Shown here: positions 9,329-14,007 of the stretch, piece by piece
Numbering within the stretch: position 1 is the first letter of the stretch
Layout: every line of letters starts with the position of its first letter
Assembly (NCBI GenBank): GCA_046351535.1
Contig: JAXLYG010000016.1
Location: forward strand, 128,670 to 192,669
Length of the DNA stretch: 64,000 nt
Direction: 5' to 3'
Origin: Polyangiales bacterium
Lineage (GTDB): Bacteria; Myxococcota_A; Polyangia; Polyangiales; Ga0077539
Made by a program: the position numbers and the translations under genes
Notes under the pieces: model-generated
What the model was told of the DNA's origin: nothing
Databases searched by the model: none
What the model saw: the letters and a program-made list of their open reading frames with translations, nothing else

Positions 9329-11092
9329 ATGTCCGGCGCCCCGAAGGCCCCCGAAGCCCGCAACCGGTATGAGGGCGACGTGCTGCTCGGCACCGTGCTC
9401 AACGGCAAGTTCGCGGTCCGCGCGGTGCTCGCCAACGGCGGGATGGGGCGCATCTACCGCGGCGAGCAGATCCCCCTCGGGCGCCCCGTGGCGATCAAGG
9501 TGCTGCACTCGAAGTACACGTCGAGCCAGGAGGATCCCGCGTTTCAGAAGCGGTTCTTCCTCGAGGCGTCGATCCTCTCGAAGCTCCAGCACACGAACAT
9601 CGTGACGGTGTTCGACTACGGCCGCATCGAGAACACCGAGGACGAGTCGTACTTCATCGCGATGGAGTTCCTCCACGGGGAGACGCTCCACCGCAGGCTC
9701 CGCGCGCTCGGGGCGCTGCCGCCCGTCGAGGCCATCGGCATCGTGCGACAGATCGCGCGAGGGCTGAGAGAGGCCCATCGGCAGGGCGTCGTGCACCGCG
9801 ACCTCAAGCCCTCGAACATCATGCTCGTGCCCGAAGACGACGGCCACGAGATCATCAAGATCATCGACTTCGGCCTCGTGAAGGTGCTCGCCGACGACAG
9901 CGAGGAGCTCACCAAGGAGGGCTCCTTCCTCGGCTCGCCGCGGTACATGTCCCCCGAGCAGATCGCGCACGGCAGGGTCGATCACCGCACGGACATCTAC
10001 TCCCTCGGGGTGATCCTCTATCAGTGCCTCTGCGGCAGGACGCCCTTCGAGAACGAGAACTCCGTCCACACGCTCATGGCGCACCTCCAGCTCCCGGTGC
10101 CCGCGATGCGGGAGCGCAACCCCGCCATCGACGTGCCCGAGGTGCTCGAGACCTTCGCCCGCCGCTGCCTCGAGAAAGACCCCATCAACCGCCCCTCCAC
10201 CATGGAGGACTTTCTCCGCGGCCTGCGCGAGTGCGAGGTCACCCTCGGCCTGTCGAGCGCGAGCCTCTCGACGGGCTCGGGGCAGTACGGCTCCGGCGCG
10301 AGTCATCCCCTCCCCGTCGCCGCGCACAACTACTCCGACGCGTCGCTCACCTCGAACCCGAGCGGCTCGCTCACCTCGAATCCGAGCGCGTCGCTCACTT
10401 CAAATCCGAGCGCGTCGCTCACTTCGAACCCGCTCCCCGCGATCACGCACGGCTCCGCGGCCCACGCCGCGGCCCCCTACGCGCCCGTCCCCTCGGCGCC
10501 CTTCGCCGCGGCGCCCGCGCTCGCGTCGGCCACCCCCATCGCCGCGCAGCCTCCCCCGCCCGCGAATCGCGCGCTCCCCATCGCGCTCGCGCTCGTGGCC
10601 GTGATCGCGTGCGCCCTCGTCGCGCTGCTCGTGCTCGGACGCTCGTCGACCACCGCGCCGCCGCCCGTCACCAACGCGCCCGCCGTCGACGCGAGCGCCG
10701 CGCCGCGACCGTCCGAGGGGCTGCGCGAGTACCGCCTCGTGATCGCGTGCGACACCACGGGCGCGCAGGTCTTCGAGGGAGACTCGCTCCTCGGCGCCAC
10801 GCCGCTCACCCTCGTGGTCGACAACAACGCCGTGCGCACTGCGCCGCGGCGCTTCGAGGTGCGACACGACGGCTACGACTCGTTCCCCGTCGAGGCCACC
10901 GTGTCGGAGAACCCCTCGGTGCGCGTGCTCGCGTCGCTCACGCCGAGCGCCGCAGCGCCGCCCCCGCAGACGCAGCCCGGCGCGCAGACGGCCGCGAGGC
11001 CGACCGTCGGGAGGCCCACCGCGCGACCGCCGCGACCGCCGACTCCGCCCCACGCTCCCGATCCCAACGACGACATCCGCAGCCACCGATGA
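9329..11092 (+). CDS. Ser/Thr protein kinase with a single TM helix and an extracytoplasmic PEGA domain
   Basis: Intact catalytic motifs: GGMGRIY, VAIKVL, VVHRDLKPSNIML, IIDFGLVK, GSPRYMSPEQ. TM helix ALPIALALVAVIACALVALLVLG. C-terminal PEGA-like module: YRLVIACDTTGAQVFEGDSLLGATPLTLVVD...FEVRHDGYDSFPVEATV. Confidence 0.9.
   Translation: MSGAPKAPEARNRYEGDVLLGTVLNGKFAVRAVLANGGMGRIYRGEQIPLGRPVAIKVLHSKYTSSQEDPAFQKRFFLEASILSKLQHTNIVTVFDYGRIENTEDESYFIAMEFLHGETLHRRLRALGALPPVEAIGIVRQIARGLREAHRQGVVHRDLKPSNIMLVPEDDGHEIIKIIDFGLVKVLADDSEELTKEGSFLGSPRYMSPEQIAHGRVDHRTDIYSLGVILYQCLCGRTPFENENSVHTLMAHLQLPVPAMRERNPAIDVPEVLETFARRCLEKDPINRPSTMEDFLRGLRECEVTLGLSSASLSTGSGQYGSGASHPLPVAAHNYSDASLTSNPSGSLTSNPSASLTSNPSASLTSNPLPAITHGSAAHAAAPYAPVPSAPFAAAPALASATPIAAQPPPPANRALPIALALVAVIACALVALLVLGRSSTTAPPPVTNAPAVDASAAPRPSEGLREYRLVIACDTTGAQVFEGDSLLGATPLTLVVDNNAVRTAPRRFEVRHDGYDSFPVEATVSENPSVRVLASLTPSAAAPPPQTQPGAQTAARPTVGRPTARPPRPPTPPHAPDPNDDIRSHR
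10343..10438 (+). repeat. 24-nt in-frame tandem repeat x4 (SLTSNPSG/A) in the kinase juxtamembrane linker
   Basis: tcgctcacctcgaacccgagcggc / tcgctcacctcgaatccgagcgcg / tcgctcacttcaaatccgagcgcg / tcgctcacttcgaacccgctcccc. Confidence 0.9.

Positions 11093-14007: not shown

Follow-up and report, generated by a model that had tools for sequence, protein, structure and literature searches.

The stretch of DNA analysed here is 64,000 nucleotides of a Polyangiales bacterium genome (assembly GCA_046351535.1, contig JAXLYG010000016.1, positions 128,670 to 192,669 of the forward strand). It is referred to as the window throughout and has a GC content of approximately 72-74%. At 9329-14007 it contains two overlapping genes on the forward strand. 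The first encodes a Hanks-type serine/threonine (Ser/Thr) kinase and the second a TonB-dependent receptor that has a TPR domain and three PEGA domains ahead of its plug. A preliminary description of this locus, made from the sequence alone, recognised the pair and proposed that the two proteins communicate through their PEGA domains. Here we describe the domain anatomy of both proteins, the conserved linkage of their genes, a C-terminal tail that is specific to the receptor-linked kinases and the conservation of the receptor TPR domain. The two proteins may well form an envelope module of Polyangia that resembles a TonB-dependent transducer, has Ser/Thr phosphorylation as its output and probably uses the TPR domain to clamp the tail of the kinase. 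The features of the two genes are as follows, in coordinates of the window.

9329-11092, + strand: gene for the bitopic Hanks-type Ser/Thr kinase, 587 aa; stop codon TGA at 11090-11092
9404-10243, + strand: cytoplasmic kinase domain, residues ~26-305 (Pkinase match and AlphaFold pLDDT >90)
10244-10567, + strand: disordered cytoplasmic linker, residues 306-413 (sequence; pLDDT <50 over 315-413)
10568-10636, + strand: single transmembrane (TM) helix, residues ~414-436 (hydropathy; AlphaFold helix 415-436)
10721-10939, + strand: periplasmic PEGA-like beta-sandwich, residues ~465-537 (sub-threshold Pfam match; AlphaFold strands 467-535)
10940-11068, + strand: proline-rich periplasmic linker, residues 538-580 (sequence; low pLDDT)
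11069-11089, + strand: conserved C-terminal tail DDIRSHR-COOH, family motif D-I-x-x-x-R-COOH (ends of homologues)
11089-14007, + strand: TonB-dependent receptor gene (972 aa, N-terminal extension TPR-PEGAx3), its start codon ATG overlapping the stop codon of the kinase
11089-11157, + strand: signal peptide, residues 1-23, ...AGTAQA|DD (sequence)
11158-11424, + strand: TPR domain, residues 24-112, two TPR motifs and a capping helix (TPR_2; AlphaFold)
11425-12057, + strand: three PEGA beta-sandwiches, residues 113-185, 186-255 and 256-323 (Pfam; AlphaFold)
12064-12087, + strand: candidate TonB box EEVSAASR, residues 326-333, in a flexible linker (conservation; pLDDT 51-55)
12100-14004, + strand: plug (residues 338-449) and 22-strand-type barrel ending in Phe (Pfam)

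The kinase matches the Pfam profile Pkinase (PF00069) with E=4.7e-52 and 177 bits. Its catalytic motifs are complete: the Gly loop GGMG (residues 37-40), K57 in VAIK, E79, HRD (156-158), N163, DFG (180-182) and SPE (208-210). The catalytic residues are invariant in two alignments of orthologues (n=47 and n=73), and to judge from its sequence the kinase is catalytically intact. A hydropathy peak for the TM helix occurs at about the same position in 49 of the 53 orthologous kinases examined. The AlphaFold model contains, in order, a confident kinase domain, a disordered linker (315-413), the TM helix (415-436), a beta-sandwich (467-535, pLDDT ~96) and a disordered proline-rich C-terminal stretch. 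The window kinase scores 15.7 bits against Pfam PEGA (PF08308; cut-off 20.8, E=0.014) over profile positions 2-69 of 71. The PEGA label for this sandwich is reasonable because 30 of 47 orthologous kinases match the profile at E<=0.01, the best with E=9.8e-9. The anatomy given in the preliminary description (all catalytic motifs, one TM helix and a periplasmic PEGA domain) is thus borne out, the last as a PEGA-like sandwich on a sub-threshold Pfam match and AlphaFold. The proline-rich linker is present in all orthologues, including those that lack PEGA. Orthologues differ widely in the length and the sequence of the cytoplasmic linker, and in the window kinase it includes four tandem copies of SLTSNPS[GA] (residues ~338-368, window ~10340-10440).

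The kinase stop codon TGA (11090-11092) overlaps the receptor start codon ATG (11089-11091) to give ATGA at 11089-11092, as noted previously. The mature N-terminus of the receptor, ADDxADEAD, is conserved among homologues. TPR_2 scores 24.1 bits with the whole protein (cut-off 27) and 27.1 bits with the N-terminal fragment alone. PEGA matches in three stretches above the gathering score (E=6.7e-34, 116 bits), and matches to CarboxypepD_reg overlap them. The Plug profile PF07715 (E=5.3e-23, 82 bits, cut-off 23.9) and the barrel profile PF00593 (E=2.3e-28, 100.7 bits, cut-off 27) follow, and the protein ends in ...ASVTF, of which the terminal F is conserved among homologues. In an AlphaFold model of residues 1-355 (pLDDT 90.4), five helices (25-112) precede three beta-sandwiches and a low-confidence linker (321-345); the TPR helices have pLDDT 95-98 and the sandwiches 94-97. 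Pfam and AlphaFold therefore agree with the earlier account of a signal peptide, a TPR region, three PEGA domains, a plug and a barrel ending in Phe. By Foldseek the TPR domain superposes on the designed protein CTPR2 (1na3; TM 0.85, rmsd 1.4 A) and also matches the TPRs of Hop, Sgt2, Tom71 and PEX5, and the PEGA sandwiches match the regulatory domain of carboxypeptidase D.

The closest solved structure to the receptor is CirA (E=5e-19). In the candidate TonB box V328, A330, S332 and R333 are invariant in 118 sequences, and SAAS of the query is aligned with VTAS of CirA, which we take to be the C-terminal end of the Cir TonB box (ETMVVTA). A TonB-box-like segment, more polar than the consensus, thus lies between the last PEGA domain and the plug, where the preliminary description had suggested looking for it. 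STN (PF07660) has no match in the receptor at E<=0.1 with the whole protein or at E<=10 with the N-terminal 356 residues. Two identities were considered and rejected, SusC/RagA (TIGR04056, 23.9 bits against a cut-off of 368.25) and haem/haemoglobin receptor (TIGR01785, 125.5 bits against 316.85). The receptor segment FRAPSIYEIFYTTATSRPNGSLQPE contains no His; the motif expected in haem receptors is a conserved His between the FRAP and NPNL boxes. In the profile search the receptor remained below every substrate-specific NCBIfam cut-off.

The receptor belongs to a family of more than 120 homologue clusters with at least 50% identity over the full length, all of which have PEGA and Plug. Their database names are generic, only 'TonB-dependent receptor'. 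Among GTDB species genomes there are 345 receptor loci, and the best 80 of these (receptor identity to the window 48-97%) were used for the locus comparisons. All 80 are, by their record titles, from Polyangia-type myxobacteria, including Sorangium, Minicystis, Labilithrix and many metagenome-assembled genomes (MAGs). The closest relative is a Myxococcota MAG with a receptor 97% identical to that of the window (locus L001). Adjacency was counted in the 70 loci that have at least 2 kb of upstream DNA. A same-strand kinase gene ends between -4 and +307 bp from the receptor start in 52 of them, 14 with the identical ATGA overlap. In two further loci (L028 and L066) the kinase is divergently adjacent, so that a kinase adjoins the receptor in 54 of 70. 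The preliminary description held that its proposal would fall if the genes were not syntenic outside the source genome; they are syntenic.

All open reading frames (ORFs) in the flanks of the 80 loci were clustered, 7 kb on each side where the contig allowed. Only the receptor (80) and the kinase (57) are conserved across these flanks, followed by bacterioferritin (14) and then by Sorangium-specific genes. Across the family the kinase is the sole conserved neighbour of the receptor. No TonB/ExbBD, sigma, anti-sigma, FHA or phosphatase gene is co-conserved with the pair in these flanks. That the linkage is kept while the surroundings change points to selection on the pair itself and not to inherited gene order. 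Receptor and kinase probably function together as a pair. A second complete pair (clade B), with tails LDISTER or LPIAIQR, is present in at least five MAGs, among them the close relative of the window. Four loci (L018, L020, L039 and L052) have two tandem kinase genes upstream of a single receptor; both kinases lack PEGA and both are tailed (e.g., SLEIRGSR and DLDIRMTR). This arrangement suggests that two kinases share or compete for one receptor.

The element common to all partner kinases is a short C-terminal tail, which was unremarked in the preliminary description. It follows a Pro/Ala-rich stretch in all adjacent kinases and reads, for example, DDIRSHR, DSDIRLHR, DLDIRMTR, SDIRLKR, LEIRTRR or GLEITTER. 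We scanned 3110 stop-to-stop six-frame segments of at least 150 aa from the 80 loci for the pattern [DE][ILV][RKNTIL]xxR at the end. It terminates 62 segments, and 60 of these are receptor-linked kinases. Among the best 120 clusters of kinase homologues 114 end in I-x-x-x-R; D occupies position -6 in 99 of them, I position -5 in 112 and R position -1 in all 114. The remaining six are truncated or frameshifted entries. The tail is absent from unrelated kinases of the same loci, of distant taxa and elsewhere in the window. A further Ser/Thr kinase gene of the window (41866-43770, + strand) ends in ...PPRWLVARA without the tail and serves as an internal negative control. Since both kinases of tandem loci and the divergently oriented kinases bear the tail, it is conserved at the protein level and not as a DNA or translation signal for the downstream gene.

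The PEGA domain of the kinase is optional. In 12 of the 52 adjacent kinases the TM helix is followed only by approximately 80-110 low-complexity (Pro/Ala-rich) residues and the tail, and the receptors that partner them keep all three PEGA domains without gaps. The identity of the PEGA-less kinases to the window kinase ranges from 29% to 55%, a spread suggestive of repeated loss of PEGA. Because these linked kinases have no PEGA domain, contact between PEGA domains cannot be the shared coupling principle. The tether and tail can.

The TPR domain is the most conserved part of the receptor extension. Mean column conservation in the receptor family is 0.79 for the TonB-box/plug region, 0.73 for the TPR domain, 0.66 for PEGA1, 0.56 for PEGA2, 0.66 for PEGA3 and 0.60 for the barrel. 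The TPR positions were assigned by aligning the two repeats to the TPR consensus. By this alignment we take L33, L36, G37, A49, F53, S56 and P61 (repeat 1) and V66, I69, A70, Y73, A82, Y86 and A89 (repeat 2) to be the structural positions. The helix-A residues that it assigns to the concave groove, F34, Y41, N64, N68, R71 and E74, are invariant or nearly so. Such conservation of the groove is expected of a conserved ligand and not merely of a conserved fold. A search with the TPR domain alone against 1.84 billion representative proteins returned 240 clusters at E<=1e-10. In the best 150 of these nearly all have the TPR at ~20-120 in proteins of ~970 aa or fragments thereof. This type of TPR thus belongs to the receptor family, because nearly all of those 150 placements are N-terminal and the internal ones examined are merged or frameshifted. 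The latter (P0249, P0256, P0265 and P0287) had appeared to be natural TPR fusions and were rejected as such; they do place the kinase ahead of the receptor on additional contigs.

A pattern of charges between TPR and tail was also found. Glu at TPR residue 35 goes with His or Lys at tail position -2 in 17 of 17 pairs; by identity, the two sequence groups into which these pairs fall are not nearest relatives of each other. With Arg at residue 35, as in clade B and Sorangium, position -2 is occupied by Glu, Asp or Gln. With few independent events this co-variation in sequence is only suggestive, and hints at direct contact.

The arrangement differs in Sorangium. In 13 Sorangium loci an ABC importer and not the kinase lies upstream of the receptor, and the TPR domain is fully conserved. 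In the two genomes checked (So0157-2 and So ce26) two tail-bearing kinases are encoded per genome. One ends in PLDIQIER and is convergent with the receptor at a distance of 8.5 kb (So0157-2) or 12.8 kb (So ce26), with inserted genes between. The other ends in APSIRIDR and is unlinked, ~0.7 Mb away. A further locus (L051) has a receptor with a Sorangium-like N-terminus, and no kinase was found within the available ~2.1 kb upstream. The genes between the Sorangium receptor and the tailed kinase (L080 3132-6431 and 10883-12391; L142 18267-21668) resemble a set for polyamine uptake and catabolism. They encode an ABC ATPase with a TOBE domain, two permeases, a PotD-like binding protein, an arginase/agmatinase-family enzyme, a CN-hydrolase and a flavin amine oxidase.

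The receptor extension and the kinase tether and tail are both periplasmic and lie beside the flexible TonB-box-like linker. Physical contact, its site, the direction of signalling, the ligand and the kinase substrates are all inferred. That the two proteins touch in the periplasm we hold to be somewhat probable; that the contact is between tail and TPR, and that the signal flows from the outer membrane to the kinase, is a tentative proposal. The TPR groove would clamp the free C-terminal tail of the kinase, in the manner of the Hop, Sgt2 and PEX5 TPRs with C-terminal peptides. The fold is of the right class for a tail clamp, because the receptor TPR matches the TPRs of such C-terminal-peptide binders. 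Ligand binding and the action of TonB at the neighbouring candidate TonB box would then shift the receptor extension. By analogy with the effect of FecA on FecR, the shift might alter the clustering or activation of the kinase, and cytoplasmic targets would be phosphorylated. The Pro-rich tether of the kinase and the ~300-residue extension of the receptor would jointly bridge the periplasm.

Other explanations of the pair were weighed. According to the preliminary description the periplasmic PEGA domain of the kinase would contact one of the three receptor PEGA domains and so relay occupancy. This would fit the PEGA-type beta-sandwiches that kinase and receptor of the window both display in the periplasm, and the Pfam-detectable PEGA of the 30 orthologous kinases. 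It did not survive the comparison of loci, in which 12 of 52 adjacent kinases are PEGA-less and yet linkage, tail and the three receptor PEGA domains are kept; moreover, no part of the receptor extension is less conserved than its PEGA domains. We consider this contact improbable, although the kinase PEGA may add affinity in some lineages. A tether that is independent of ligand is rather improbable. Here the tail would hook the receptor extension, and the kinase would report envelope spacing or damage, or would simply be localised. The Pro-rich tether and the ~300-residue extension could, by our estimate of their lengths, span the periplasm, and the TagQRST-PpkA system offers a precedent for the activation of a Hanks kinase by outer-membrane-associated components under envelope stress (PMC7817224, PMC11881912). 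However, the TonB-box/plug region is the best conserved in the receptor, which argues for an active transporter and not a mere anchor.

Co-expression without contact, which we regard as unlikely, would leave the kinase to regulate uptake, or the downstream use of what is imported, through phosphorylation of proteins in the cytoplasm or inner membrane. The periplasmic part of the kinase would sense some other cue, perhaps peptidoglycan by means of PEGA in the way that PknB uses PASTA, and tail and TPR would bind other partners. PEGA has been classed among the peptidoglycan-associating domains (Kaur et al. 2020, PMC7159879), which favours this explanation, and operon structure alone accounts for the co-conservation. 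Several further observations either favour it or otherwise count against a tail clamp. Three non-Sorangium loci (L032, L065 and L077) have no kinase nearby and yet a fully conserved TPR domain, so that the TPR may have a different ligand. In a scan of 54 pairs the tail positions share no more mutual information with TPR columns than with barrel columns, but the scan is uninformative because phylogeny dominates with this number of pairs. The receptor TPR has just two repeats and a cap and is shorter than the classical three-repeat carboxylate-clamp domains. The candidate TonB box is atypically polar (EEVSAAS against ETMVVTA of Cir). Without a co-conserved FHA, phosphatase, sigma or TonB/ExbBD gene in the 80 loci, no output is indicated. 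Nevertheless, an absence of contact leaves unexplained the invariant tail on a Pro-rich tether, which is near-exclusive to receptor-linked kinases including those without PEGA. It also leaves unexplained a TPR domain of the peptide-binding type that is confined almost wholly to these receptors. Clamping of the tail by the TPR domain is the reading that we tentatively prefer.

The neighbours of the pair in the window are bfd/bfr, a gene for a short-chain dehydrogenase/reductase (SDR) and a second kinase gene. The divergent iron-storage genes are one further feature.

8328-9123, - strand: bfd (8896-9123) and bacterioferritin bfr (8328-8798), divergent from the kinase (Ferritin E=2.9e-42; Bfd-like Cys motif)

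The Bfd-like [2Fe-2S] protein (MIVCSCQGV...) is encoded upstream of bacterioferritin, and the two genes constitute an iron-storage operon. Its divergent arrangement with the kinase is found only in the 13 closest loci. The sole conserved intergenic piece between bfd and the kinase gene is a 28-bp element at 9188-9215, TATAGTGAGAnCnGTTCTCGTTTTCAAG, present in 11 loci (within L002, L004 and L008-L017). On the minus strand it reads TTGAAA-N17-TATAnn with a palindrome GAGAAC-N-GTTCTC in the spacer, which is perfect in L004 and L008 and has two mismatches in the window. The element is probably the bfd-bfr promoter with an operator for a Fur-family-like regulator, and not the kinase promoter. It shows no similarity to the Escherichia coli Fur box. 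No Fur box with three or fewer mismatches to the E. coli consensus occurs anywhere in the window. Scans of 8700-14300 for sigma-70 promoters and terminators found none. The neighbouring iron-storage operon hints weakly and indirectly at a link of the pair to iron, and does so for the closest clade alone.

The first 6 kb of the window have a GC content of 0.56-0.66 against ~0.72 and include a gene for a VgrG/type VI secretion system (T6SS) spike (2725-5457, - strand). A link of the pair to T6SS through VgrG was considered and rejected, as none of the related loci, not even the 97%-identical L001, has a match to VgrG. The low-GC region is probably an island of recent acquisition that has nothing to do with the pair. 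The ORF at 5676-8315 (+ strand, 879 aa) contains a partial and weak kinase domain (Pkinase E=2e-12, profile positions 76-253) without a tail. L001 has a conserved counterpart of this ORF (91%) and L017 a weakly conserved one, and the product may be a pseudokinase. Downstream of the receptor, 15146-16990 (+ strand) encodes a Cys-rich Stig1-like/DUF7305 protein. In eight loci of the closest clade (within L008-L017) its Cys-rich segment (residues ~112-191) appears again, ~0.7-1 kb downstream of the receptor and on the opposite strand.

Several known systems share features with the pair. TonB-dependent receptors are known to signal through STN to anti-sigma and extracytoplasmic function (ECF) sigma factors. 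As in FecA/FecR/FecI, a TonB-dependent receptor has an extra periplasmic domain N-terminal of the TonB box (here TPR and three PEGA domains, residues 24-323, ahead of the candidate box), and its gene accompanies that of an inner-membrane protein which crosses the membrane once, acts in the cytoplasm with its N-terminal part and has its C-terminal part in the periplasm. Unlike that system, the present one has no STN and no anti-sigma or ECF sigma gene conserved nearby, and the partner is a Hanks kinase. SusC/RagA and Oar-type receptors likewise have one or more transthyretin-like beta-sandwich domains before the TonB box and plug. Here, in contrast, three tandem sandwiches are capped by a TPR domain and there is no SusD partner; we know of no kinase partner for those families.

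The carboxylate-clamp TPRs of Hop (TPR1/2A), Sgt2, Tom71 and PEX5 are similar in that the receptor TPR superposes on them, as on the CTPR designs, and in that the proposed ligand is a conserved free C-terminus. They differ in that the receptor domain has two repeats and a cap and is periplasmic and bacterial, and in that the tail is basic (...R-COOH) whereas their ligands are EEVD or SKL; binding of the tail is a proposal. The PASTA kinases PknB/Stk1 are also bitopic Hanks kinases with extracytoplasmic domains, and the window kinase scores 281 bits to NF033483. This is below the cut-off of 450; there is no PASTA domain, and the extracytoplasmic part consists of the optional PEGA, the Pro-rich tether and the tail. 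The periplasmic domain of PpkA is of the vWA type. In the TagQRST-PpkA system of the Pseudomonas H1-T6SS, a bitopic Hanks kinase is likewise the target of outer-membrane-associated components that act by way of the periplasm (PMC7817224, PMC11881912). There the components are a lipoprotein and a periplasmic protein and not a TonB-dependent receptor, and the output is Fha1 and T6SS.

Full-text literature searches in which PEGA/TPR was combined with TonB-dependent receptors and Ser/Thr kinases yielded no account of such a system, in keeping with the earlier remark that the arrangement is undescribed. The anatomy and the linkage are solid. It is possible, if somewhat doubtful, that the pair represents a new class of TonB-dependent transducer, widespread in Polyangia, in which clamping of the free C-terminal tail of a kinase by a TPR domain replaces STN, anti-sigma factor and ECF sigma factor.

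To our knowledge, outer-membrane-associated components are known to act on a Hanks kinase only in the T6SS system TagQRST-PpkA. A receptor wired directly to a Ser/Thr kinase would, if true, join this route with the known signalling route of TonB-dependent receptors. It would provide a defined input for one of the very numerous myxobacterial kinases and a role for the poorly understood TPR/PEGA extensions. The module is directly testable, as it consists of just two genes, exists in hundreds of natural variants and offers a candidate contact of seven residues.

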